From positions 1-51,337 of IMG/VR virus record IMGVR_UViG_3300036846_000218: a stretch of 51,337 nucleotides of DNA, one strand, 5' to 3'. This document shows, in pieces, positions 1,048 through 48,900 of the stretch. This DNA is from a virus. A program made the position numbers and the translations under genes. Under the pieces are notes generated by a model, which made no database searches, was not told the origin of the DNA, and saw only the letters and a program-made list of their open reading frames with translations. Numbering within the stretch: the stretch's first letter is position 1; each line of letters begins with the position of its first letter.

Positions 1048-1075
1048 AAAAAAAGTCATCTGGCGACTTTTTCAA
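1048..1075. terminator. AT-rich hairpin immediately after the stop of 1077..1340 (weak, bidirectional)
   Basis: AAAAAGTC, loop ATCTGGC, GACTTTTT. Only three G/C-containing pairs, so this is a low-stability stem. Confidence 0.35.
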
Positions 1076-1076
1076 T

Positions 1077-1340
1077 TTATTTTGGCTTCGTTTCCAGCTT
1101 TACGAGTCGAACATCGACACCATGAATGGTTGTCAGCAGGGTTGTTACTTGATTGTTGAAGTTCTCTGTTTGATGATCAACTTTGCCGTTAAGAGTCTCG
1201 AAGCGATTGTCAACTTTGGCTTCTAGTCGTTCAACCTTATCGCTTAGGCGATAGAATCCGGCTAAAATGAATCCTGTTTGAGCGATTATCGCTGTGATAA
1301 AGACTCCGGTCATGCTAAAGAAAAGTTGCGTCGTACTCAT
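1077..1340 (-). CDS. Small membrane protein, N-terminal TM helix + coiled coil (paralog family member 1 of 5)
   Basis: 87 aa. The N-terminus MSTTQLFFSMTGVFITAIIAQTGFILAGF is hydrophobic and is followed by heptad-like KVERLEAKVDNRFETLNGKVD. The N-terminal MxTxQxF pattern is shared with 41341..41574 and 41596..41784. Confidence 0.7.
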   Translation of the reverse strand: MSTTQLFFSMTGVFITAIIAQTGFILAGFYRLSDKVERLEAKVDNRFETLNGKVDHQTENFNNQVTTLLTTIHGVDVRLVKLETKPK

Positions 1341-1633: not shown

Positions 1634-4027
1634 TTACTCCGGCGACTCCGGTTCTTTCAATTGCTTCTGGCGTTTTCTGCCCCTGCCGCGTACTGGTTCT
1701 TTCAACGCTGCAAAGTCTGTGATGTAGTATGCAGTTCCAAGTCTGCCTGATTCTCTGATCTTTCCCATGTCCACAGCAAACAACGTGCCACAGTCCACCA
1801 TTCCTTTCAAAGTTAAATCAAAATCCCAACGACCATTTCTAGCATTGCGAAACGCGGCGTATGCCATCAAATTGTTCTGTAGGTATCGCCGTGTTACTAA
1901 CTTGGCATCGAACATCTGTTTACTAATTCCAAACTCCTTTTGTAACTTCTCAGACCATCCATTTGTCCAATATCTAAACAAATATTGCCGCATCGTTTTC
2001 TGCTGTTCCAGATATGACGTTTTCATTCCTACCTCGCCTTGCTGGAAACGCCACGTCACATTAGCAATACCACTGACGATGAACTTTCGCGCCCATTCAA
2101 CAGCTTCAGCCGTCACTACCGGGCAATTCGGACTCATACCTACAGACACCAGACCGGCAAGGCGCAAGACTCGCAGATGTGCTCTGGAATAGATTTTTGC
2201 TTCTGCTGAATCCCGGTTCTCATACGTCTTGCGAGTACATTCATCTAAGAATTCCATCTGCGCCTTGTAGGCATCGGGAGTCTGCGATATCTTTACAGTC
2301 TGCAACTCTTTTTCTTTTGAGCCTTGCATGTTGACGATCTTGCGAATGAGTTGACTGATGAACGTTATCAGTCCCGCATCAGGTTCAATAGTTCCGTGCG
2401 CTTCGTTATATACCGGCTGTTCTTCCATGTCGCATTCAACCACACAAAAGCGATTAATAAATCCCTCTTCAACGTTTTCTTCGTCCACCGATTTGTAAAA
2501 CGTATCCGGTGTTGCATCCCCAAATAAGGTAAACGCTGGTGCTCTGACTGCCGCAACATTCTTCGCTTTGTCACTGTATATGGACCCTCGAAACATGGAT
2601 TCAGCCCCGGATTTCATAAACAAATCTAATAAAATCTTACGCATACCTCTTTCATTCGCATGTGCAAATTTGTCCGTTAAATCCTGTAACCACAACCCCA
2701 TTTCTCCCTTGTGCGACAAGAAACACGGTGATACTGTCGATAAGTGTTTGATTAAGGCTTGCGGAGAAGCGATTTCAGCCGGTCCTATGAATTGTTCGAT
2801 TGCCGGTGCCTTTTCCGCTACGTAGGATATCAACCGTGAGATACCGTCCGCCGCGCCCTCTTTGCCGCCCCCGGTTGGTGCCAGCACCACAATGTAATGG
2901 TTCAAGCCGGTGTTGCTGATGTTGAATTCCCGGCCACAGATACCAGACAAAAACGCAATCGCCGCTGCCGTCGCTACTTCCCTAACAGGATGAACTGAAT
3001 TAGCAAATATGAACTGCGCTATCTCTCCAAGAAACCCCGGTGGAGGTTCATAGTCGAATTGCAGTACATCCTTCTGCACGAAGTCTGGAAGCTGAATTAA
3101 CTTTGAATGGTATCCATTGTTACCGTTAGGTGTTGGTTCGATGATCGGAATTGCGATTGCTTTTTTCTGTTCTTCATACACCTTGTCCTTGATCGTCATT
3201 TCAATGTTTGCAAAATAGACCGGTGGTTTTTTCTGATCGAACGAACGGCTTATGATGCCGTACTTAGGGTGATATAGGTAGTCTTTGCGATTAGCTTTGG
3301 CGCGTTTCCCTAGTTCGGACCGGTGAAAGATGCGCCCGACTTGAGTTTTGGAATCGGTGTAGAACGCGATGATATCAACTAGCGCAGAGTCAGCCTCAGA
3401 CTGTGACGCATAGCTCAGTTCGCTCAATTTCCCTTCAAACAGTTTCTTAAATAACTGCCCGTTCAATGCGTCACCGGCAGCTTTAATCACATCGTCATCG
3501 GACAGCGTTTCAGGCACATTATCCGGTACCATCGGGTTGATATTGGTTTGCTTTGCCACAATGTAGTAGTACAGTTCGTTCAATTCTAGCTGCCTGAGAT
3601 TAATCAATTCGTAATTCAACACATCCTTTGTTATGGTCACGTACCCTTGCGTGATCAGTTCGATGTGCTCATTGGGCAGCTTCCGATTTTGTTCTAACTT
3701 CGCTTCGACAAGGATGTGAACTCCCTTGTTTGGGGATAGCTCCGCATAGCTGTTCAGCTTTTCATAAACCGATTGGTGTTTGGCCCATATCACCGGGTCC
3801 GTTGTCTTGTAGGTATCAAGATCAACGGCGCTATACGGAGTGTTAGTTAAAACAAAACCTAGCACCAGTCCCTTGTGCAATTGGACACAGGCGTCCGCCG
3901 ACGCGTAATCCGCCCATGAATACGGGTCATGAATCACATCAGCCCGTTGCATGGTCAAAGGATTGAGCGGTATCTTGTCGTGAAGATAAGCCACGACCCA
4001 ATTGCGGTAGGATTTCAACTGTTCCAT
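1634..4027 (-). CDS. Primase-polymerase (PrimPol) fused to a P-loop helicase-like domain (DUF3987-type architecture)
   Basis: 797 aa. The N-terminal motifs AVDLDTYK and GVHILVEAKL resemble the prim-pol acidic and sGxH motifs. There is a central Walker A motif VLAPTGGGKEG. The gene is divergent from the + strand replication genes. Confidence 0.75.
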   Translation of the reverse strand: MEQLKSYRNWVVAYLHDKIPLNPLTMQRADVIHDPYSWADYASADACVQLHKGLVLGFVLTNTPYSAVDLDTYKTTDPVIWAKHQSVYEKLNSYAELSPNKGVHILVEAKLEQNRKLPNEHIELITQGYVTITKDVLNYELINLRQLELNELYYYIVAKQTNINPMVPDNVPETLSDDDVIKAAGDALNGQLFKKLFEGKLSELSYASQSEADSALVDIIAFYTDSKTQVGRIFHRSELGKRAKANRKDYLYHPKYGIISRSFDQKKPPVYFANIEMTIKDKVYEEQKKAIAIPIIEPTPNGNNGYHSKLIQLPDFVQKDVLQFDYEPPPGFLGEIAQFIFANSVHPVREVATAAAIAFLSGICGREFNISNTGLNHYIVVLAPTGGGKEGAADGISRLISYVAEKAPAIEQFIGPAEIASPQALIKHLSTVSPCFLSHKGEMGLWLQDLTDKFAHANERGMRKILLDLFMKSGAESMFRGSIYSDKAKNVAAVRAPAFTLFGDATPDTFYKSVDEENVEEGFINRFCVVECDMEEQPVYNEAHGTIEPDAGLITFISQLIRKIVNMQGSKEKELQTVKISQTPDAYKAQMEFLDECTRKTYENRDSAEAKIYSRAHLRVLRLAGLVSVGMSPNCPVVTAEAVEWARKFIVSGIANVTWRFQQGEVGMKTSYLEQQKTMRQYLFRYWTNGWSEKLQKEFGISKQMFDAKLVTRRYLQNNLMAYAAFRNARNGRWDFDLTLKGMVDCGTLFAVDMGKIRESGRLGTAYYITDFAALKEPVRGRGRKRQKQLKEPESPE

Positions 4028-4179: not shown

Positions 4180-4584
4180 ATGCAGTTATCGCCTGAACAA
4201 CTGAATGTTTTGAGAGATTGGAACGAAGCGAAACAGCAAGCGAAGACATGGGTGGAGAAAGAAAGCACTCTTCGTGACGCTCTAGTCAAGCAGCTATTCA
4301 ATGCCGACAAGGATGAAGGCACTGAAACAATCCAAATTGAAAACGGTTGGTCATTGAAGGCATCAAAGAAACTCACCTACTCACTAAACAACGATCAAGG
4401 TGAAGTATCCGCCATCTGCGCTACGCTGCCTGATGCCGTGTCCAGACAATTAGTTCGCTGGAAACCTGAATTGAGTTTAAGCACCTACCGTAAGTTAGAT
4501 GGTGCTACTGCACAAATGTTTCAAAATGTGCTAACCATCAAACCGTCCAAACCTTCGCTTGAGCTATTGCCGCCGCCCGAATGA
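4180..4584 (+). CDS. Hypothetical protein at the head of the recombination module
   Basis: 134-aa ORF whose stop overlaps the next ATG (ATGA at 4581-4584). The N-terminal half is helical and charged. No motif was recognised. Confidence 0.6.
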   Translation: MQLSPEQLNVLRDWNEAKQQAKTWVEKESTLRDALVKQLFNADKDEGTETIQIENGWSLKASKKLTYSLNNDQGEVSAICATLPDAVSRQLVRWKPELSLSTYRKLDGATAQMFQNVLTIKPSKPSLELLPPPE

Positions 4585-5255
4585 CCATCAAAGTCAATTT
4601 CACGTCAGATATTAAATTGGATTATGGAGTAAAGGGTTGCTTATACGGTGAGTCTGGTATTGGCAAGACTCGCTTACTGGCAACTGCCCCTAATCCTTTA
4701 ATCCTGTCGGCTGAAAGCGGCTTACTATCGTTGCGGAAAGAACGTGTTCCGTTCATCGATATCACTACTTACAAGCAATTGGTTGAAGCTTATGACTGGG
4801 TGGTCAACAGCGCGGAGGCAAAAAAGTACACGACCTTTGGACTTGATTCATTGTCGGAGATAGCCGAAGTTGTCTTGGCTGAATCGTTGCGAACCAACAC
4901 GGACGGAAGACGCGCCTATGGCGAAATGCAACAACAGATGTACCGTCTGATTCGCAACTTCAGAGACATACCCGGTAAAAACATCATCATGGTTGCGAAG
5001 CAAATGCAGATAGACGCGGGGATAACAAAAGGCGCTGCCCCCATCATGCCGTCTGAAAAACTGCAAGCGCAATTGCCGTACTTTTTTGATTTGGTTCTCC
5101 ACATGTTTGTTGGCATTGATCCAACTAACGGCAAGAGCTACACCGCGATTCACACGCAATCAGCAGTTGCATGGCAAGCCAAAGATCGATCAGGAACACT
5201 AGATGCAGTTGAGTATCCGCATCTAGGAAACATCTTCAAGAAAGCACTAGCATAG
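4581..5255 (+). CDS. AAA_24 / Sak4-like RecA-family ATPase
   Basis: 224 aa. Walker A motif LYGESGIGKTRL near the N-terminus. It occupies the typical position before a DUF669-like gene. Confidence 0.8.
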   Translation: MTIKVNFTSDIKLDYGVKGCLYGESGIGKTRLLATAPNPLILSAESGLLSLRKERVPFIDITTYKQLVEAYDWVVNSAEAKKYTTFGLDSLSEIAEVVLAESLRTNTDGRRAYGEMQQQMYRLIRNFRDIPGKNIIMVAKQMQIDAGITKGAAPIMPSEKLQAQLPYFFDLVLHMFVGIDPTNGKSYTAIHTQSAVAWQAKDRSGTLDAVEYPHLGNIFKKALA

Positions 5256-10829: not shown

Positions 10830-13154
10830 ATGAATTACGATAACGCTTCCCCGATTCCTAACAAGTGGTTGCAACCTGATGGCAGCATTACCACCTTTGA
10901 CGGCACCATTGTTATCCAAGCGGCAAATCAACCGGGAGTTAATTACTATAACGCGCAATCACCGATTCCAAACAAGACACTGAATCCGAACAATTCAGTC
11001 ACCACGTTCCCGCAAGCCGGTGCCGGGGTGACAACTCCTGCCGGTCCTCAAGGTGCGGTGCAATTCAATGACACAGGCGGATTCAACGGCACCGGTGCCT
11101 TGACTGCCGATGCATCCGGCAACCTAAAGATGGCTGGTGGAACATTGACTTTGAGCGGTGCTAGCAGCATCGCTATCACTGGCACCGGTACCCTCACCGC
11201 ACCCGTTTTCTGGTATGGAACTAATTTAGGTTTCTCAGCGTCAGCAAACGGGCAGATGTTATACTTTTGGCCCGGAATAGCTGGGCGAAGAATAGGCTTC
11301 AGTGGTCAAGGAACTGGAAGCGGAATTATATTTAGTGCCGCTTGTGCTGTTAGTTGGAGTCCAGATTCTCCCAATTTGAATGATCCTCCCACCGCACCCG
11401 ATACGTTTCTTTATAGGGGAGGACCGGGGCAACTTCGTATATACGGAACTAGTTTCTCACCGGGTTCGCTTGCCCTTATTCCGTGGCAAGCCGCAACTGC
11501 TGCTACAAACTACAGTCCTGGCGCATTCATTGCCGGTGGTACCTATTGGAACGGTACAGCATCAGCAAACGATGCTTGGAGTATTCAACAGGTATTTGGC
11601 ACCGGTACCAATCCCACTAGTCAATTGCAAATCCTCCACACCGGTACAACCGGTGCAACGCAAACCTTCATCGGTAGCAATATTGCAATCGATGTTGCCG
11701 GTACAATTCCAGTTCCGTCTGCTGCTTCGTTTTCTGTCAGCAACAATGGAACCTCTTTGTTTCAAATAGCACCGCCCCCCGGTGGAAGCTATCTCGTAGG
11801 AGGAACCAATTTACTATATATGCCGCGAGGGTCTGGTGGAGGAGGTTATTTAACCATTCCTGCCGGTGGGATGATTGGAATAACCGGTGCGAGTGCATTC
11901 GGCTTAGGTTACTGCGGTGGTCCTCCTAGCCTCAACACATTAATCATAAATACTGCATTAAACGTAAATCAATTTTCGATGAGTGGCGGTACAGCAGGGA
12001 TTTCTCCAAAACTCGTTGTTCAAGGCAGCGATGCAAACATCGGTATGATCTTTGGAACCAAAGGTACCGGGACCATTAACCTTGGCGATATCACAGCGCG
12101 AAACAGCATCATCATCGCACCGTCAGCAACCGGAACAGGACCGGTTATTAGCAGTGCTGGAGTAGACACCAACATCGATATCAACATTGACCCGGCAGGT
12201 ACAGGCAACGTTAATCTCGTTGGTCCGACCAACATCAATGGCAATTTGATGGTCACTGGAATATCAACACTTACCGGTGATGCCAATATCAGCGGCAACG
12301 TGACAGCACTCGGAGCACTCGGTATTAACACAACTCCCGGTTATCAATTTAATTTGAAGAATGCTGCCGCCGTAAATTCACCCTGTTTTATGATTACAAA
12401 AAGCACCGGTCTCACTCCAGGCGCAGTTTCAATTACATTCAATGAACCTTCCAACTACGTGACCCTCAGTCTTGGAGGAGCATCAATTCAAGGATTTGGA
12501 GGCAGTCTTGCCATGCCTTCCATGAGTACAACAGGCGGATCAGTTGTAAGTTTCGCACCACAAATAGGTAGCGTTGTTCCACTTTCACTTACAAATCAGG
12601 CGGCAACCGTCACTGCCCACTATTTCAACGTTACACAAAGCGGTCAAACAGCCGGTAATCTCTTCAATATCGATCAGGCGGGTAATACAAACGTTGGTGG
12701 TGTGTTCACAGCCGGTGTTGGCGGCACCGCTGCTTTTCAAGTAATTGCTTCTGCCGGAACGTTCACACAAGGTTTTACAATAAGACCGGCAGGTACAAGT
12801 GGCATAGCAGCACTTCAAGTCACTAATGGTTTTCTGCTTGGATGTGGTCCGGGAGGAGTAATTCAATTAGGTTACGGGGGCACTGGTGCTTCTGTCACGT
12901 TAGTCGTTCAAGCAGCCGCATACGTCAATCAATTTTCGATGAGTGGCGGTACAGCAGGGATTTCTCCAAAACTCATTGTTCAAGGCAACGACACCAACAT
13001 AAATTTGTCCCTGCAACCAAAAGGCACCGGTGCATTAAACGTGTCTGGAGTACAAGCGTTTACTAACAATGCCGCTGCCATCGCTGGTGGTTTAATCGCC
13101 GGATCAATTTACCGCACTGGTGCTGATCCAGATGTACTCTGCATCGTTCACTAA
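10830..13154 (+). CDS. Large Gly/Thr/Ala-rich tail fibre or receptor-binding protein with internal repeats
   Basis: 774 aa with SD CAGGAGAAA. The N-terminal SPIPNK(W/T)L(Q/N)P...(I/V)TTF motif is duplicated. The composition is beta-rich with G/T/S/A/N. The segment NQFSMSGGTAGISPKL(V/I)VQG occurs twice. Confidence 0.65.
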   Translation: MNYDNASPIPNKWLQPDGSITTFDGTIVIQAANQPGVNYYNAQSPIPNKTLNPNNSVTTFPQAGAGVTTPAGPQGAVQFNDTGGFNGTGALTADASGNLKMAGGTLTLSGASSIAITGTGTLTAPVFWYGTNLGFSASANGQMLYFWPGIAGRRIGFSGQGTGSGIIFSAACAVSWSPDSPNLNDPPTAPDTFLYRGGPGQLRIYGTSFSPGSLALIPWQAATAATNYSPGAFIAGGTYWNGTASANDAWSIQQVFGTGTNPTSQLQILHTGTTGATQTFIGSNIAIDVAGTIPVPSAASFSVSNNGTSLFQIAPPPGGSYLVGGTNLLYMPRGSGGGGYLTIPAGGMIGITGASAFGLGYCGGPPSLNTLIINTALNVNQFSMSGGTAGISPKLVVQGSDANIGMIFGTKGTGTINLGDITARNSIIIAPSATGTGPVISSAGVDTNIDINIDPAGTGNVNLVGPTNINGNLMVTGISTLTGDANISGNVTALGALGINTTPGYQFNLKNAAAVNSPCFMITKSTGLTPGAVSITFNEPSNYVTLSLGGASIQGFGGSLAMPSMSTTGGSVVSFAPQIGSVVPLSLTNQAATVTAHYFNVTQSGQTAGNLFNIDQAGNTNVGGVFTAGVGGTAAFQVIASAGTFTQGFTIRPAGTSGIAALQVTNGFLLGCGPGGVIQLGYGGTGASVTLVVQAAAYVNQFSMSGGTAGISPKLIVQGNDTNINLSLQPKGTGALNVSGVQAFTNNAAAIAGGLIAGSIYRTGADPDVLCIVH
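11962..12030 (+). repeat. Intragenic direct repeat, copy 1
   Basis: 11967-12014 is identical to 12927-12974 (48 bp). About 66 bp match with 3 mismatches. The offset is exactly 960 bp (320 codons). Confidence 0.9.
12922..12990 (+). repeat. Intragenic direct repeat, copy 2
   Basis: See copy 1. The shared string is AATCAATTTTCGATGAGTGGCGGTACAGCAGGGATTTCTCCAAAACTC. Confidence 0.9.
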
Positions 13155-39430: not shown

Positions 39431-39712
39431 GGATTTTTACCTCCATTTCCCCCTTGCGGGAATTATTCAATTGAGAACGAATAGTACGCTCGTAATGCAG
39501 CGAAAGCAAGTTGAATCGTTACAAAAGTTCACAATGTTGTAAACCATTGTTAATTCAACAGTTGCTTAATTTCCTCCCACTTTTCCACAAGCAAGACACC
39601 CATACAGTTGCAAACATGAAATCATGAACAACCCATTGCCTAACGGTTTGACGCCATAATGACGTCATAGTAGAACAACGCCTTTGTGGATGTACTATAG
39701 CCAGTTACCACT

Positions 39713-39748
39713 CTGTACAAGCCTGTACAAGCCTGTACAAGCCTGTAC
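39713..39748. repeat. Tandem decamer array (CTGTACAAGC)x3 plus a partial fourth copy
   Basis: Perfect copies at 39713, 39723 and 39733, with CTGTAC at 39743. TGTACTA also occurs at 39691 and 39744. Each unit contains the palindrome TGTACA. Confidence 0.95.
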
Positions 39749-39758
39749 TAACTTTGTG

Positions 39759-39956
39759 TTAGTTTATCCGGCGAATGGGGATGGTACGTTCATCCAGAAA
39801 CCTATCAATGTCCTTGCGCCTGATCTTGCGAAAGTGACCGATCTTGACGCTAGGAATCTCCCGATTGTAGACCCATCTCCACAGCGAATCCACTTTCATA
39901 CCTAACAACATTGCAGCTTCGGGAACACTATACAATTCCTGTTCGATAGGACACAT
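39759..39956 (-). CDS. xis: Excisionase-family / MerR-type helix-turn-helix DNA-binding protein
   Basis: 65 aa from the ATG at 39956. YSVPEAAMLLGMKVDSLWRWVYNREIPSVKIGHFRKIRRKDIDRFL is the classic Xis-type HTH pattern. Confidence 0.7.
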   Translation of the reverse strand: MCPIEQELYSVPEAAMLLGMKVDSLWRWVYNREIPSVKIGHFRKIRRKDIDRFLDERTIPIRRIN

Positions 39957-42453: not shown

Positions 42454-43596
42454 TCATTGAATCGGTCCCTTAACAGTGTTAAACATTTCTTTCCAGCCTT
42501 CAAACGCTTTCTCAACTACGCGAATACGATCTTCTCTGAATGAGTGCAAATAAACATCCATCATCTTGTCGTTAACGTGACCCATCATCGCCTTGATATC
42601 AGCCTTCGTTGCGTGTTTGCCAATCATGGTGCCAAACGTGTGTCTAAGATCGTGCCAACGACATTCAATGCCAGCAGCTTTCTTTGCGCCCTTCCAAACA
42701 CCAAAACTTTTTGTTGGAATAGTGGGCAGCGTTTTGTAAATGCCATAACCCCCGCCCTTGACGTGACCGTACCGTTGCGATGGAAACACGTAATGATCAG
42801 GCTTCGCTTCGGGAAACTTCGATTTCCATTCCAGCAATACTTCTACCGCATCCAACATTGGAATGAAACGTTCCCCTGCTCTTGTCTTCGTGGTTTTCCG
42901 TTGCACAAGAAACTGACGATTTTCAAAATCAACAGACTTCCACTGCAAGTTGAGCAATTCCTTCCGGCGTACACCGGAGAGCACCGAAACCTGTATAGCG
43001 GTTTGAAACGCTTCTGAACGCGATTCACCGGCAATCTTAAACAACATCAGAAGTTCCCTTTTGGACAACGGCTTACCCATTGTTTCCTCTTCGGAGAACA
43101 TATGAAAGGTGCTGCCTTCTTTCAGCCGGTTCCACAGCTTATGCTCAACAAACAATTGCCGAACGGAAGTCAACTCGATGTTGATTGTGCGATCAGCCGG
43201 GGGTTTACCGAACTGCGTGACTTGCGTCTTGCGGTGATTCTGGTACCGCCGCAAGTCTTTGCCGTTAATATCCGTAATCAGCATCTCACCAAAAAACTCA
43301 ATTAAATGCGGCATTGATGTGCGGTGCATGATATAGGTCTTGCCCTTGTCACCACCCCAACCAGCTTTATTCAATTCAACAAATTCTTCCAACGCAAATC
43401 TAAATAGCTTCGGTGAACGCGAAGCTGGAACCATATCATTGCCGCCCCGAATGAGAGACGTGTAAAGGTTATTTAATACCTCTTGAGCAACATACTTCAC
43501 TTTGGTTTTGGTACTCTGCGCATATCGGATACCCTGAAACTGAAATTCATAGTGCCAGTACCCATTTTTGTGTTGTTTCAACCTAGGCATTGCCAT
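42454..43596 (-). CDS. int: Tyrosine integrase (site-specific recombinase)
   Basis: 380 aa. Catalytic landmarks are LSGVRRKELLNL (Arg), RWHDLRHTFGT (H-x-x-R) and MMDVYLH (Tyr). Confidence 0.85.
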   Translation of the reverse strand: MAMPRLKQHKNGYWHYEFQFQGIRYAQSTKTKVKYVAQEVLNNLYTSLIRGGNDMVPASRSPKLFRFALEEFVELNKAGWGGDKGKTYIMHRTSMPHLIEFFGEMLITDINGKDLRRYQNHRKTQVTQFGKPPADRTINIELTSVRQLFVEHKLWNRLKEGSTFHMFSEEETMGKPLSKRELLMLFKIAGESRSEAFQTAIQVSVLSGVRRKELLNLQWKSVDFENRQFLVQRKTTKTRAGERFIPMLDAVEVLLEWKSKFPEAKPDHYVFPSQRYGHVKGGGYGIYKTLPTIPTKSFGVWKGAKKAAGIECRWHDLRHTFGTMIGKHATKADIKAMMGHVNDKMMDVYLHSFREDRIRVVEKAFEGWKEMFNTVKGPIQ

Positions 43597-45298: not shown

Positions 45299-45471
45299 CC
45301 CGCATCAAACAGTCGAATATACTTGCCACACTTGGCGCAATGAATGTCACCATCGTGGAAAGTCTCTGAATAGTTGCGCAGTTCAAATTCAGTTGATCCA
45401 CATTCACAGGTAGTGTTGTTGAGAGTGAATGAGGAATCCTTAATTTCGTTTCCGAAAACGTCCGTGTTCAT
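45295..45471 (-). CDS. Small zinc-ribbon protein
   Basis: 58 aa from MNTDVFG, with AAGGATGG upstream. Contains CECGS...CAKCG. Confidence 0.5.
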   Translation of the reverse strand: MNTDVFGNEIKDSSFTLNNTTCECGSTEFELRNYSETFHDGDIHCAKCGKYIRLFDAG

Positions 45472-45556
45472 TTTGTCACCATCCTTGATTTTGTTTCGTG
45501 AAGGCGCTAGACGTGAGTTGCGAAGCAACGAACGTTGATAGCCTGAACTTGTGGAG

Positions 45557-45766
45557 TTACCATCCTTGATCCTCGATTACTTTCTTGATTACAACCTCAT
45601 CGTCAACGATTGAGCAGTTAGCATAGAACTTATCCACGAATTCAAAGAATTGCCGATAGTGATTATTAAACGGCAGAGTGGTGGTGAACGTCCTGTTTTC
45701 GTTGTAGACAAGTATTGGCGGATTGTCTTCAGAAGATGCTAGCGGTTTCTGAAACTTCAGGATCAT
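45557..45766 (-). CDS. Hypothetical protein
   Basis: 69 aa with AGGAGAAA upstream of the ATG. Confidence 0.55.
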   Translation of the reverse strand: MILKFQKPLASSEDNPPILVYNENRTFTTTLPFNNHYRQFFEFVDKFYANCSIVDDEVVIKKVIEDQGW

Positions 45767-46430
45767 GCGCTTTCTCCTGTTGATCTATGGAGTGAAAGGG
45801 TAGCGAAGCACCCGAAGGGGGCGAAGCGGACCTTGAACTGTCTGCATGTGTAATCTGAACTGAGGCAGAGATTCTTAACTTAATCTGCTCTCTGGGATGA
45901 ATTCGGGCGAATTGAGCAGCGGTAAGCTTTAGATGGGAGAGGATACGTTGCAAGGGTTGAGTGATCGAACCTTTGCTGTGGTAGACCTTGCGGGATGTGT
46001 TGCGGTTTCGTGAAGGGGAAGCGTTAAGGGATGCGGAGCATCCCTTATCCGTACCCTGAACTGATGATGATAGCAGCATCTTCACCTTATCTAATTGAGT
46101 CTGAACTAAAGCGGCATTATCAAATTGATTGTTGTCCATGTAGGAAAGCAATTGGTTGTTGAGAGATTGCGCTTGGGCGACAAGAGCTAACTTCTCTTCC
46201 GGATACAGAAGCTTGGCATCGGGACAATACCAAACCCACCAGCCGGTGAGTGAGCGGTGGAATTTGAGATTGGTATTGTAGCGGCGATTGTAGTTGGAAA
46301 CCATGTTGCGAAAGTTGGTTGGATTGAGAGTAGAGGTTACATGTGGTGGGATGATGAAGTAGCCGTTGGGAGAAAGAGTCTCCATCTGCAATTTGATCCA
46401 CGGTGGGTAGCGGCTTGGACGTTTAGTCAT
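45729..46430 (-). CDS. Hypothetical protein
   Basis: 233-aa ORF with a Ser-rich C-terminal half. No motif was recognised. Confidence 0.5.
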   Translation of the reverse strand: MTKRPSRYPPWIKLQMETLSPNGYFIIPPHVTSTLNPTNFRNMVSNYNRRYNTNLKFHRSLTGWWVWYCPDAKLLYPEEKLALVAQAQSLNNQLLSYMDNNQFDNAALVQTQLDKVKMLLSSSVQGTDKGCSASLNASPSRNRNTSRKVYHSKGSITQPLQRILSHLKLTAAQFARIHPREQIKLRISASVQITHADSSRSASPPSGASLPFHSIDQQEKAHDPEVSETASIF

Positions 46431-46507
46431 TTTTAGTGCCTACAAGAATTGAAGTGAAGGGGTAGTGTGTTGAGGACCGAAGGTCCGAAACACCGAACCC
46501 TGAACTA

Positions 46508-46684
46508 TTACCCTGAACTGATTTTTGAAATTGATCCACCCTTGCTTATAACCCACGCTTTGAACTTGTGAAAGGGTGCGCCAATGAATTTGTGAAAGAC
46601 TGGTGCAGCCTCAGTGATCAAATCAGCGTTCGTTACAACGGCAGCAGTGATGTTTTTTAGTTGTATTTGATAAACCGTAGTCAT
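46508..46684 (-). CDS. Hypothetical 58-aa protein (below the ORF-track cutoff)
   Basis: ATGA overlap with 46681..47172. Product is MTTVYQIQLKNITAAVVTNADLITEAAPVFHKFIGAPFHKFKAWVISKGGSISKISSG. Confidence 0.4.
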   Translation of the reverse strand: MTTVYQIQLKNITAAVVTNADLITEAAPVFHKFIGAPFHKFKAWVISKGGSISKISSG

Positions 46685-47172
46685 TTGAACCTTTCAGGCG
46701 GATTGGTCCTGATCCCTTCAACCGTCAATTCATGCCCTTCAACGGCAGCTTGAACAGACGTGTAGCGGCAAACAACAGTGTAGTTAGAATCGGTGGGACC
46801 GAACACCATTGTTTCCCAAAGGAAAGGAATAGGGGAAAATGGGTTAGCGTCGATACCTAGAAACACAGTTGAGACTTCAATCTCGCCAAGTAGTGAAGTA
46901 AGAAACGTTTTCAACACTGTTCGATCAGTTGTGGCGTACCACTCAGCCCAACGAAAAATGTCCCGGCAGGGAACAGGGGTGTTGGTGGATGGGTCTAGGA
47001 TGTAGGTTCCAATCCACGGTAAGAAATTAAGGTTGCCTACAGGGATTCCCTCGAAATCAAGTAAGTGTTCTAAAGACGAATCGTGATCCTCAATTGAAAT
47101 GTTCTCGATGGGTGGAGTAGGAGTATTGTGGTTAGGGTTTTCACAATCATCGTTCCAGTCGTTTTCAGCCAT
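46681..47172 (-). CDS. Hypothetical protein, first gene of the - strand accessory array
   Basis: 163 aa with GGAGGA 7 nt upstream. The N-terminus is acidic. WETMVFG resembles a recurrent phage pattern. Confidence 0.6.
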   Translation of the reverse strand: MAENDWNDDCENPNHNTPTPPIENISIEDHDSSLEHLLDFEGIPVGNLNFLPWIGTYILDPSTNTPVPCRDIFRWAEWYATTDRTVLKTFLTSLLGEIEVSTVFLGIDANPFSPIPFLWETMVFGPTDSNYTVVCRYTSVQAAVEGHELTVEGIRTNPPERFK

Positions 47173-47451
47173 GTTGTGATCCTCCGGGGATTTCGGGGTG
47201 GTCGCGCAGATGGTACCTTTTTTTTATGGTGCTAGGATAGGTTTTTTTTTATGTAGTTGAGAGTAGGGGAGTTATACCGGGGATTTTGTACGTGCCTCCG
47301 CGCGGCGGCGGCTAACCCCCCTATTTTCAATGGGATACGTAAGCATATGAAAACAAAGGACTTGCGCCTCGCATTGAGAACAAAGGACTTAGGTAAACCA
47401 TTGATTCGATTAGGGATAGCGTAAAGTGTTGATTCCATTGGGGAATGGTCA

Positions 47452-47469
47452 TAGTTAATTGAATCTAAA
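47452..47469. repeat. 18-bp direct repeat TAGTTAATTGAATCTAAA, copy 1
   Basis: Identical to 47611-47628. It is flanked by the inverted pair TGATTCCATTGG (47430-47441) and CCAATGGAATCA (47520-47531). Confidence 0.9.
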
Positions 47470-47610
47470 TGGGTTCGGACAGGGGAAACCCGAATAAATC
47501 CCGGTATACATGCATAACTCCAATGGAATCAATAGAGATAATCTGATCACCTAACAGACGTTCGCTTCTCCTTCGTTATTGGTTCGCTTTCTCATCTTCG
47601 GGGCACATTT

Positions 47611-47628
47611 TAGTTAATTGAATCTAAA
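47611..47628. repeat. 18-bp direct repeat TAGTTAATTGAATCTAAA, copy 2
   Basis: Identical to 47452-47469 and 159 bp downstream of it. Confidence 0.9.
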
Positions 47629-47721
47629 GCAACTTGTCCAAATAGCCCCGTCCGCCCGGTATGGTGACAATCCATTCTCCACCATACGCCAAAAAGAAGG
47701 TTAAATCCAATGTAATCAATA

Positions 47722-47760
47722 ATATATATATATATGTAGTAGTAGTATAGTAGATAGATG
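47722..47760. repeat. AT-rich simple-sequence tract (AT)7 followed by GTA/GATA repeats
   Basis: ATATATATATATAT GTAGTAGTAGTATAGTAGATAGATG, with GTATATATAGAATAT 11 nt further on. Confidence 0.9.
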
Positions 47761-47978
47761 GAGAGTCTTTGTATATATAGAATATCGTCATACCTGCCAT
47801 ACATACACTTGTAACCCATAGATTAAAAAAGCGTTCGACTGAAAATGCCGTAGGGTAACAGCCATACGACAGGTCACCCTACGGCTAATGTGCTTTGGAA
47901 AGGGTTCAAGGTACACTTCGTGTCGCTTCGCTCCACTTCGTTTCCCTTTCACTTCATAGGCTAGACTTTGTAGGCAAC

Positions 47979-48054
47979 CAACAACGTCCAGCGCAACAAC
48001 CAACAACGTCCAGAACGTCCGCTCGGTCCGAACCCATAACGCAACAACGTCCAG
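47979..48054. repeat. Three copies of the 13-mer CAACAACGTCCAG (iteron-like)
   Basis: Copies at 47979-47991, 48001-48013 and 48042-48054. GTCCAGCGC follows the first and third copies. Confidence 0.9.
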
Positions 48055-48178
48055 AGTCCAGCGCAAAGTTAATTGAGAATGATCACCCTAGTTTGAAAAC
48101 GTTTTTTGTATGCAATTCAATTGCCAATCTATAGTCACGCTACATCGTCAATTAGTAATCGCCTAATGGTCATACCCT

Positions 48179-48242
48179 AAAATGTAACACGTCAAATTGA
48201 GAAATCGCCAATATCCATGCACCTTTCAGAGTGTTACATTTT
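48179..48242. repeat. 12-bp perfect inverted repeat AAAATGTAACAC / GTGTTACATTTT with a 40-nt spacer
   Basis: Arms at 48179-48190 and 48231-48242. A direct repeat ATCGCCA-N11-GCACCTTT occurs at 48204-48226 and at 48253-48275 (N10 spacing). Confidence 0.9.
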
Positions 48243-48535
48243 GTGATCACGAATCGCCAGTGTTTACGCACCTTTAACGTATACTCTGAAACACTCCGGC
48301 AATCAACAGCTTACACACAAATACAGCTACTTTAGCATATGCCCATTGCTAGCGTTTCTAGACGCGTAGCGCGTTCGATGGGGAAAAGTGGCACCCTACC
48401 CTGTCCAACGTCTATCGAACGCACCTCCAGAGTCCGAAAATAAAGTTGAAACATATCTAACTAGTTGTGCTATGTATGGATTGTAGGCAATTTGACGCAT
48501 TGTTACATTTGCACGTTGAAAACGACCCCAAACGT

Positions 48536-48579
48536 AGCGTAGAAATAGCGAAGTAAAAGCGTAATGAAAGCGAAGTAGT
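48536..48579. repeat. Four 11-bp-phased AGCG(A/T)A repeats
   Basis: AGCGTAGAAAT AGCGAAGTAAA AGCGTAATGAA AGCGAAGTAGT, with AGCG at 48536, 48547, 48558 and 48569. AGCGAAGTA also occurs at 49124. Confidence 0.9.
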
Positions 48580-48634
48580 CCATTGCCCAATTCCCCTATA
48601 TAGATACGCTCTTATATTTAGTTAGAAATCGTTG

Positions 48635-48664
48635 TTGCTTTCCTTAATTGAAAACGTCTATATT
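48635..48664 (+). promoter_or_regulatory. Candidate sigma70-like promoter of the + strand early-type operon
   Basis: TTGCTT (48635-48640), an 18-nt spacer, then TATATT (48659-48664), 20 nt upstream of the ATG at 48685. It overlaps the shared box TGAAAACGTCTAT. Confidence 0.4.
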
Positions 48665-48684
48665 GTGAGTGGGAGAAATACCGA

Positions 48685-48861
48685 ATGAAACAGTTCAAAG
48701 TATGGTTGAACGACAATCGCGGGAATAACAGAGAAATGATTGTCCGTGCATCATCCCGGTCCGCCGCAATGCTGATAGGCGAATCAACTTTTTATACGTG
48801 GTTTGCTGTAGACGCATGGGAAGAAACAGAAACGCCACTATTGGACTCACTGTCCAACTAG
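48685..48861 (+). CDS. Hypothetical 58-aa protein (below the ORF-track cutoff)
   Basis: GGGAGA lies 8 nt upstream. Product is MKQFKVWLNDNRGNNREMIVRASSRSAAMLIGESTFYTWFAVDAWEETETPLLDSLSN. Confidence 0.55.
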   Translation: MKQFKVWLNDNRGNNREMIVRASSRSAAMLIGESTFYTWFAVDAWEETETPLLDSLSN

Positions 48862-48862
48862 G

Positions 48863-48900
48863 CACAACACACAACACACAACACAACACACAACACACAA
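48863..48900. repeat. CA-rich microsatellite (CACACAA/CACAA units) in an intergenic leader
   Basis: CACAACACACAACACACAACACAACACACAACACACAA lies immediately before the SD and ATG of 48910. A related tract CAACCAACAACACACAACACATAACC is at 49133-49158. Confidence 0.9.

Follow-up and report, generated by a model that had tools for sequence, protein, structure and literature searches.

Why should a phage leave 1.5 kb of its genome without a gene? The question is raised by the IMG/VR virus record IMGVR_UViG_3300036846_000218, a stretch of 51,337 nucleotides (nt) that was analysed at its full length and is referred to here as the window. It represents a complete circular genome with a terminal overlap of 127 bp and 51,210 unique bases, and its largest intergenic gap extends from position 47173 to 48684. 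An initial annotation, made from the letters alone, had seen in this gap a candidate replication origin, a regulatory centre or a large non-coding RNA (ncRNA). We find that the gap is a conserved non-coding hub composed of several separately conserved modules. The reading that we prefer, and that we hold tentatively at somewhat less than an even chance, is that this hub combines a two-part origin with the early control of a temperate myovirus-type phage, and that it works as DNA rather than as RNA or protein.

The view that the gap is free of genes was borne out by an independent gene caller. Contig L052, which is 99.76% identical to the window and crosses the circular junction, comes from a Joint Genome Institute (JGI) sample that also holds a related phage, and 12 kb were compared with the window. 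The JGI gene calls of this contig leave the gap empty.

Two motif arrays and an unstable tract

A motif of about 21 bp, nTTGATTCyAWWGGAsTTAgc, was found by short-word comparison combined with a position matrix. When the window was scanned with a matrix built from relatives alone, 11 matches of at least 12 bits were obtained against 0.9 expected, and these fell into two clusters only (47373-47720 and 350-685). The first cluster includes array A, which consists of five tandem motif units of 27 bp on the + strand (47339-47473, in a 27-nt register, with matrix matches at 47373, 47400, 47428 and 47458). Iteron-type origins carry at least three tandem direct repeats of about 17-22 bp at regular spacing, and the five units of array A are arranged in this manner. 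Two inverted copies follow on the - strand, one at 47513-47533 (26.5 bits with the relatives-only matrix) that forms the second arm of a 13-bp inverted repeat, and one at 47700-47720 (22.6 bits) that directly adjoins an AT-rich tract. Array B, at 584-685, comprises copies at 584+, 611+, 629- and 665+ (19-28 bits). It is located about 950 nt past the 3' end of the gene for an NrS-1-type PrimPol-helicase (1634-4027, - strand) and 4.1 kb from array A.

Parts of these arrays had been noticed before as isolated repeats. The 18-bp direct repeat at 47452 and 47611 is present, and the inverted pair that had been described as 11/12 bp long is actually a perfect pair of 13 bp (47429-47441 and 47520-47532). 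Both are fragments of the conserved motif family. Two other repeats that had been called iteron-like, CAACAACGTCCAG and AGCGWA, are not conserved as a family across the wider relatives.

The two arrays are positionally kept in every relative that is long enough to show them. They occur at matching relative positions in L001, L039, L041, L042 and L049, and L040 shows array B alone; across the array-bearing relatives, identity falls to 57% for DUF932, to 45% for PrimPol and to 37% for the integrase. Array B is inverted in the window relative to the relatives. The left module of L053 is 82% identical to that of the window, and in it the two arms of the 13-bp inverted repeat carry non-compensatory changes. 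This indicates that the motif copies behave as independent sites and not as a stem. Ahead of the first motif unit lies a conserved block in which GGGATTTTGTACG and AACCCCCCT are joined by a GC-rich stretch (47280-47330), and this block is recognizable even in the distant L049 and L042. Another block, GATGGTACCTTTTTT (47209-47223, + strand), is identical at 15/15 positions in L001 and L039, where it represents the 3' arm of a hairpin together with a T-run; the window has lost this hairpin.

The AT-rich tract next to the second inverted copy is an alternating purine-pyrimidine microsatellite, (AT)7(GTA)n, which had been correctly placed at 47722-47760. Nearest-neighbour free energies identify 47713-47791 as the least stable duplex of the genome, ranking first in windows of 40, 60 and 100 bp. 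The best 40-bp window has a value of -37.7, as compared to a genome mean of -55.7 (standard deviation 3.6), which places it about 5 standard deviations away. Iteron origins have an AT-rich unwinding element adjacent to their repeats, and 47713-47791 is a candidate for such an element. The stability minimum that ranks second in the genome (around 994) is separated from array B by 300 nt. At the position of the AT tract, L001, L039, L049, L041 and L053 likewise have an alternating purine-pyrimidine sequence.

By their positions, arrays A and B bracket the rightward early operon, which includes the DUF932 gene. We propose that the arrays may serve as loading platforms for one DNA-bending or DNA-binding protein. 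A host factor resembling integration host factor (IHF) is the leading candidate, since the motif is a half-degenerate palindrome that often contains the IHF consensus; alternative candidates are the PrimPol-helicase, through its C-terminal part, and a 233-aa protein with its homologs of about 180 aa, described below. Once array A is wrapped, the neighbouring (AT)7(GTA)n tract would open, and loading of the PrimPol-helicase onto the opened tract would make this site an origin. Initiation at defined template sequences has been described for the NrS-1-type PrimPol (PMC8718748). Array B may represent a second cis-acting site, like P4 crr or SPP1 oriR, and the right 500 nt of the gap (48188-48684) would then act as the promoter and operator of the rightward operon, with the boxes TGTTACATT and AACGTCY of their own.

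The right-hand module and the making of the gap

The right-hand part of the gap contains a conserved non-coding module (48188-48552) that is 72-73% identical to L001 and L039 in blastn comparisons, with flanks that cannot be aligned. It carries a 24-nt box duplicated at 48203 and 48252, and a near-invariant core of about 60 nt (48310-48361) that is led by the IHF-type AATCAACAGCTTA (48301). Exact copies of TGTTACATT are limited to three in the genome, all of them in the gap (48181-, 48232+ and 48501+). The 12-bp inverted repeat at 48179/48231 was found again; it had been thought to enclose both boxes, whereas the second ATCGCCA...GCACCTTT box (48252-48275) lies outside. Four AGCGWA units with a period of 11 bp were confirmed on the + strand (48536-48577), and only two units are present in L001 and L039. 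The promoter-proximal segment that follows (48590-48684, + strand) contains the conserved ATTCCCCTATATAGATA and the Shine-Dalgarno sequence GGGAGA in front of the ATG at 48685; it is 92% identical to L053 and partly kept in L039. A candidate promoter, with TTGCTT (48635) and TATATT (48659) separated by 18 bp and AACGTCTA in the spacer, may be located before the first rightward gene. The promoter candidates found by manual inspection are weak and only partly conserved, and a scan of the region with a sigma-70-type consensus, which may not be that of the host, yielded 0 promoters against 5.5 expected.

The right module is missing from L053 and L047. In L053 the proximal segment has been kept (92%, L053 1-61) and the right module has been swapped for a different repeat. 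Such a cassette-like exchange would resemble what one sees in immunity or operator regions. On our best reading, 48188-48684 is a separately conserved module of promoter/operator-like character.

Elements of the gap recur in a second gene-poor region (216-577). It comprises an CAGCGTCC array (216-298), an GAAAACGTCTAT box (313) and, at 319-577, a non-coding module that is conserved; the region is 71-74% identical to L001 and L039, and stops interrupt every one of the six frames. The AACGTCY/CAGCGTCC arrays and the GAAAACGTCTAT box are common to both gene-poor regions, the gap having a related CAACGTCC array at 47975-48066 on the + strand. A JGI-called gene at 462-836, which has no PHROG match, overlaps array B and the stop-containing stretch. 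This stretch is conserved in all six frames. The open reading frame (ORF) is probably not a gene, and the second gene-poor region would then measure about 1.1 kb.

Several smaller features of the gap were also verified. The three copies of CAACAACGTCCAG reported earlier are there, as are the CACTTCG repeats (47914-47948, + strand), and CACTTCG is also present in L053. TTAATTGA occurs 13 times in the genome against 2.35 expected, with 4 copies in the gap that are all on the + strand, and 4 of the 6 exact genome sites of CAACGTCYA are inside the gap. The stem that had been described as a perfect 10-bp pairing exists as a hairpin of GCCGTAGGGTAAC and GTCACCCTACGGC (47847-47885), with 13-nt arms that are 92% complementary; it is followed on the - strand by ATTTTCAG, which makes it terminator-like, and the relatives have not kept it. 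A further terminator-like sequence, TCATCTGGCGACTTTTT..ATTTATTTT, is conserved at the 3' end of the PrimPol operon (window 1050-1085; L001 8860-8890) and has a stem of only 4 bp. The 9-mer CCGCCCGGT is found 8 times in the window, exclusively on the + strand, against 0.28 expected. Its positions (222, 261, 388, 761, 5727, 10118, 43992 and 47652) fall in non-coding regions and ORF interiors alike, and it is not in the relatives' loci.

The relatives also suggest how the gap arose. In L001, L039, L041, L042, L047, L048 and L049, a + strand gene of 170-205 aa, located after array A, parts two non-coding regions. The first of these is divergent, lies beside the leftward operon and spans about 650-800 nt (measurable in L039 and L049), and the second, of 300-600 nt, is positioned upstream of small genes and DUF932. 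In the window, the homolog of this splitting gene encodes a protein of 233 aa and is found relocated and inverted at 45729-46430 on the - strand, as judged by tblastn and a family alignment. The tblastn E-values range from 1e-7 to 1e-28 against L001, L039, L041, L042 and L049, and reach 7e-89 against the closer L053. This implies that the splitting gene was relocated to 45729-46430 and that the gap represents two fused regulatory regions. A 1.5-kb stretch that appears to be empty can thus arise by the relocation of a single gene. L053 and L054 have the same gene arrangement as the window, and the equivalent gap of L053 holds one called gene that looks spurious. The GC skew of the + strand is positive at 45354-47172 despite the presence of - strand genes, unlike what is seen for other leftward genes, as might be expected if the segment that includes the 233-aa gene had been inverted recently. 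In the nanopore contig L041, the end (1-60) consists of the Oxford Nanopore Technologies adapter TACTTCGTTCAGTTACGTATTGCT and is followed at once by the left non-coding region, whose start contains GGTACC; this could reflect either a physical DNA end or an untrimmed read.

The family formed by the 233-aa protein and its homologs of about 180 aa is a candidate DNA-binding partner of the arrays. It has no known domain: there were no Pfam, PHROG or PDB-sequence matches and no significant Foldseek match. Most members, but not the window copy, start with an AT-hook-like (K/R)GRPS (L001 copy at 4286-4846). An AlphaFold2 model, with a predicted local distance difference test (pLDDT) score of 70.6, shows an N-terminal domain of H-E-H-H-E-E order with a winged-helix-like topology.

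Elsewhere in the genome, Pfam matches identified a myovirus-type structural module, terminase and portal genes, a tyrosine integrase gene (42454-43596, - strand) and a replication/recombination module. Besides the PrimPol-helicase, the latter encodes a DUF7173 protein, an AAA_24 protein, a DUF669 single-stranded DNA-binding protein, a Cas4-like exonuclease and a helicase. The PrimPol-helicase had been annotated together with a clamp and a DNA polymerase. The first assignment stands, with a solved-structure match (NrS-1) that is limited to the N-terminal PrimPol domain; neither a clamp nor a polymerase was found in a Pfam scan covering most of the large ORFs. The differences between the window and L052 are concentrated in about 400 nt (27/28 at 39473-39864), which may be either a hypervariable spot or a recombination patch. 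A (CACAA/CACAACA)n microsatellite is located between the genes for proteins of 58 aa and 73 aa (48863-48900). A DNA similarity search of the whole gap region against GenBank phages gave no match. The sole match in a host search among genome contigs was a distant one, 34% identical, in a Chloroflexi metagenome-assembled genome. A cyanobacterial host was rejected on the basis of 0 HIP1 copies, and the CcrM/GANTC idea was dropped because GANTC is neither depleted nor enriched (216 versus 198 expected).

The motif beyond this phage family

The 17-mer TTGATTCTAAAGGACTT had at least 120 exact matches in IMG/VR against about 9 expected, the expectation being derived from a control 16-mer with 37 matches. 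The 80 motif loci that were fetched have no protein in common with the window and range in GC content from 0.29 to 0.67, so that a short motif is kept exactly in phages of very different composition; the motif is mostly intergenic. In these loci it forms the right half of a palindrome, TAAGTCCTT-GATTCTA-AAGGACTTA. The arms TAAGTCCTT-N7-AAGGACTTA, which define a 25-bp palindrome family, were found with any 7-nt spacer in 77 stretches from IMG/VR and in at least 120 from metagenomes. The spacers are variable, and the site is dyad-symmetric with a half-site, TAAGTCCTTR, of about 10 bp; TAA-N4-TTGAT is retained upstream in the IMG/VR motif copies. The asymmetry of the spacer showed no bias with respect to the direction of transcription (14 versus 12), which speaks for a site in double-stranded DNA that is bound by a dimer rather than for an RNA hairpin. 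In 12 motif-bearing loci the palindrome was not matched by any Rfam family, and the searchable literature contained nothing relevant on the motif sequence or the sample accessions.

The genes next to the palindromes are diverse and include those for capsid, terminase small subunit, ligase, ParB, integrase, GP88 and, in a few cases, DUF932. The distance from a single palindrome to the next gene downstream has a median of about 90 nt in unrelated phages, whatever the gene context. A shared neighbour gene as the reader of the motif was rejected, because the largest neighbour cluster covers 4 of the 80 loci and the Pfam families are diverse, and DUF932 was rejected as a general partner with 3 of 277 loci. 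Two contigs deserve mention for their arrangement. L234 has eight perfect palindrome copies within 570 nt (4303-4871), the spacer being mostly GCTACAT or its complement. The unrelated metagenome contig L341 has a distant DUF932 gene with an immediately adjacent TAAGTCCTT-N7-AAGGACTTA palindrome on either side (11196-12620), an arrangement reminiscent of the arrays around the DUF932 operon of the window.

A 31-nt palindromic probe matched mainly phages of Burkholderia, Ralstonia, Variovorax, Pseudomonas and Stenotrophomonas. Among these, KL1 (from Burkholderia cenocepacia) and Epa40 (from Pseudomonas) are cultured lytic siphoviruses whose primase is homologous to the PrimPol-helicase, with 34-36% identity to relatives of this kind. 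In both, the motif resides in the intergenic gap downstream of the primase module and is directly followed by an AT-rich tract of 30-45 nt, and a second half-motif, AATCAAGGACTTACGCG, is found about 170 nt further on. KL1 and Epa40 combine the position of array B with the motif-plus-AT-tract anatomy of array A. This composite near a primase-helicase gene fits an origin and/or a regulatory centre.

The E. coli IHF core consensus, WATCAANNNNTTR, occurs at 10 sites in the window against 2.6 expected. Three of these sites are in the gap (47394-, 47422- and 48301+) and one is in the second non-coding region (364+); units 3 and 4 of array A carry WATCAANNNNTTR on the - strand. The motif copies of KL1, Epa40, AMP1 and RS-PII-1 contain WATCAANNNNTTR as well, with perfect cores in AMP1 and RS-PII-1. 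No homolog of HU or IHF was detected in the window by tblastn. It is conceivable, although we would not count on it, that the palindrome CGTAAGTCCTT-N7-AAGGACTTACG, with the common form TAAGTnnTTGATTCTAAAGGACTTA, is an undescribed cis-element of very many phages. A conserved DNA-bending or DNA-binding factor, either host IHF-like or a widely spread phage protein, would bind this element with high affinity, and phages would reuse the element at origins, attP sites, early promoters and packaging regions; here it would have been multiplied into two arrays bracketing the early operon. If one factor reads the motif, replication, integration and early transcription of phages could all be approached through that factor.

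Competing readings and known systems

The anticipated origin or regulatory centre stands as far as a conserved non-coding hub and a repeat array beside the least stable DNA are concerned. Several observations speak against the assignment as an origin. There is no DnaA box in the gap (TTATCCACA with at most 1 mismatch), and the cumulative GC-skew minimum, a value confounded by gene orientation, is not in the gap but at 45354, with the AT tract about 2.4 kb further to the right. No initiator was identified. The 27-bp spacing of array A is atypical for iterons (about 22 bp), and the corresponding tract of L042 is a (TG)n repeat that is not especially unstable. Furthermore, the motif is not origin-specific: hundreds of unrelated phage contigs carry a single copy, with genes for capsid, terminase, ligase or integrase as neighbours, and this wide occurrence argues against an iteron for a phage-specific initiator. 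No PrimPol homolog was found in any of the 157 motif-bearing IMG/VR loci that were tested. Two podoviruses of Ralstonia and Burkholderia, AMP1 and RS-PII-1, have the palindrome in their attP region, beside the integrase gene and a partial tRNA. Lastly, divergent operons need promoters here, so transcription alone would explain much of the anatomy.

This last consideration leads to the view that the arrays are purely transcriptional or architectural, with IHF, another host nucleoid protein or a regulator looping or silencing the early rightward operon in an immunity-like switch that involves no origin and would be comparable to the lambda, 186 and P2 systems named below. We regard this main rival as rather unlikely, but the wide, context-free spread of single sites makes it a serious possibility. 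It would account for the position of array A between the divergent operons, for the placement of single palindromes shortly upstream of genes in unrelated phages, for the dyad symmetry of a site with half-sites of about 10 bp, and for the swapping of the right module among relatives as in immunity regions. No CI-like repressor was found in the flanking genes, so that an unconventional switch would be plausible. However, array B is situated in a convergent region downstream of genes with no obvious promoter (in L049, L042 and L001), the lytic phages KL1 and Epa40 retain the motif and the AT tract beside their primase module, and the sigma-70-type scan found fewer promoters than expected. The inverted arms of 9 bp around a variable 7-bp spacer equally bring to mind the core-site architecture of tyrosine recombinases, and the arrays might belong to a recombination or packaging complex, be it the arms of an attP-type intasome, an invertible segment or a genome terminus. 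The attP region of AMP1 and RS-PII-1 would be in line with this, as would the location of the L001 integrase gene about 500 nt from array A, the inversion in the window of array B and of the ~180-aa gene, and the adapter at the end of the L041 contig. Yet the window has its integrase gene 3.7 kb away from array A and 8 kb away from array B, the relatives' integrases are just 37% identical while the motif is invariant, and the terminase genes are 10 kb off. We consider such a complex improbable. Membership of an attP site was rejected in view of the 3.7-kb distance to the integrase gene and the absence of any tRNA-like sequence; a tRNA/tmRNA scan was negative.

The possibility that the gap encodes one or more ncRNAs, either large and structured or repetitive like a type III antitoxin, is very slight in our estimation. 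The + strand of 48180-48620 folds better than shuffled sequences (z = -3.4), the palindromic unit could form a hairpin of -10 kcal/mol, and a T-run follows the palindrome in some unrelated phages. The z-score, however, stems from a long-range inverted repeat whose pairing L001 and L039 have not kept, the arms of the 13-bp repeat diverge without compensation in L053, and the spacer ends lack a sense-strand bias. The suggestion of a large structured RNA of the GOLLD/ROOL class was not upheld. Rfam searches of the whole window at gathering score gave no match, the 12 motif-bearing loci gave none either, and at E≤10 the region 46900-48900 returned a single chance microRNA match (E = 4.5). RNAalifold, applied to an alignment of three sequences, produced a weak consensus (-24.7 kcal/mol, 465 columns) whose covariation term, +2.2, was unfavourable. 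A type III toxin-antitoxin reading of the tandem units was rejected, as the ~180-aa protein model is helix-rich and winged-helix-like and has no solved-structure match. The idea that small protein-coding genes are hidden in the gap can practically be discounted. ORFs of 55-92 aa are present, and one spurious-looking gene was called in the gap of L053. Nevertheless, tblastx of 48188-48552 gave equal scores in six frames with stop codons throughout, the gene caller found no gene, and no ORF of the gap is conserved in relatives; hidden small genes were rejected for these reasons.

A two-part origin joined to an early-control hub therefore remains the reading that we prefer, with the reservations given above. 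It would offer a candidate, testable origin and control region for uncultured temperate phages with an NrS-1-type PrimPol-helicase, a phage group for which no origin was found in the present analysis, and the same element has been located in the cultivable relatives KL1 and Epa40.

Among known systems, the iteron origins of pSC101, R6K, P1 (incC/incA), lambda (ori) and SPP1 (oriL/oriR) resemble the window in having tandem direct repeats beside an AT-rich unwinding tract. IHF-type sites are part of several iteron origins, and P1, F and SPP1 have a second repeat cluster. These origins differ from the window in their period of about 22 bp, as compared to 27 bp here, and the window has neither an adjacent identifiable Rep gene nor DnaA boxes. 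Moreover, the units of the window are degenerate halves of a widespread palindrome and not replicon-specific iterons. The lambda OL/OR, 186 FL/FR and P2 Cox or 186 Apl arrays likewise consist of two separated clusters of one site, one of which is located at divergent early promoters. In contrast to these systems, no repressor, Cox or Apl homolog was identified beside the arrays of the window, and array B is neither at a promoter nor at attP. Of the features of a lambda-type operator, the consensus scan showed no promoter-like site and the flanking genes encode no CI/Cro-like protein. The E. coli IHF sites and RIP/RIB elements are like the motif in their many copies with an WATCAANNNNTTR core. 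The motif shares with them an intergenic location, an occurrence at attP, near terminase genes and near candidate origins, and its independence of GC content. Known IHF sites are degenerate, whereas the motif keeps 17-25 bp exactly, including the NNNN positions (GGAC), and is dyad-symmetric.

The last system to be compared is the satellite phage P4, with its ori and crr. The P4 alpha primase-helicase binds its repeats through a C-terminal DNA-binding domain. The repeats differ in sequence and length from those of the window (the P4 octamer is TGTTCACC), and binding of the motif by the PrimPol-helicase would be a candidate interaction; many phage contigs in which no such enzyme was found also have the motif. 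On the other hand, in P4 as in the window one short repeat forms two clusters, separated by about 4-4.5 kb, of which one is downstream of the primase-helicase gene, and P4 replicates by means of its own primase-helicase. In the window these two clusters are 47339-47720 and 584-685, the latter near the PrimPol-helicase gene, and the arrangement is kept in the relatives.

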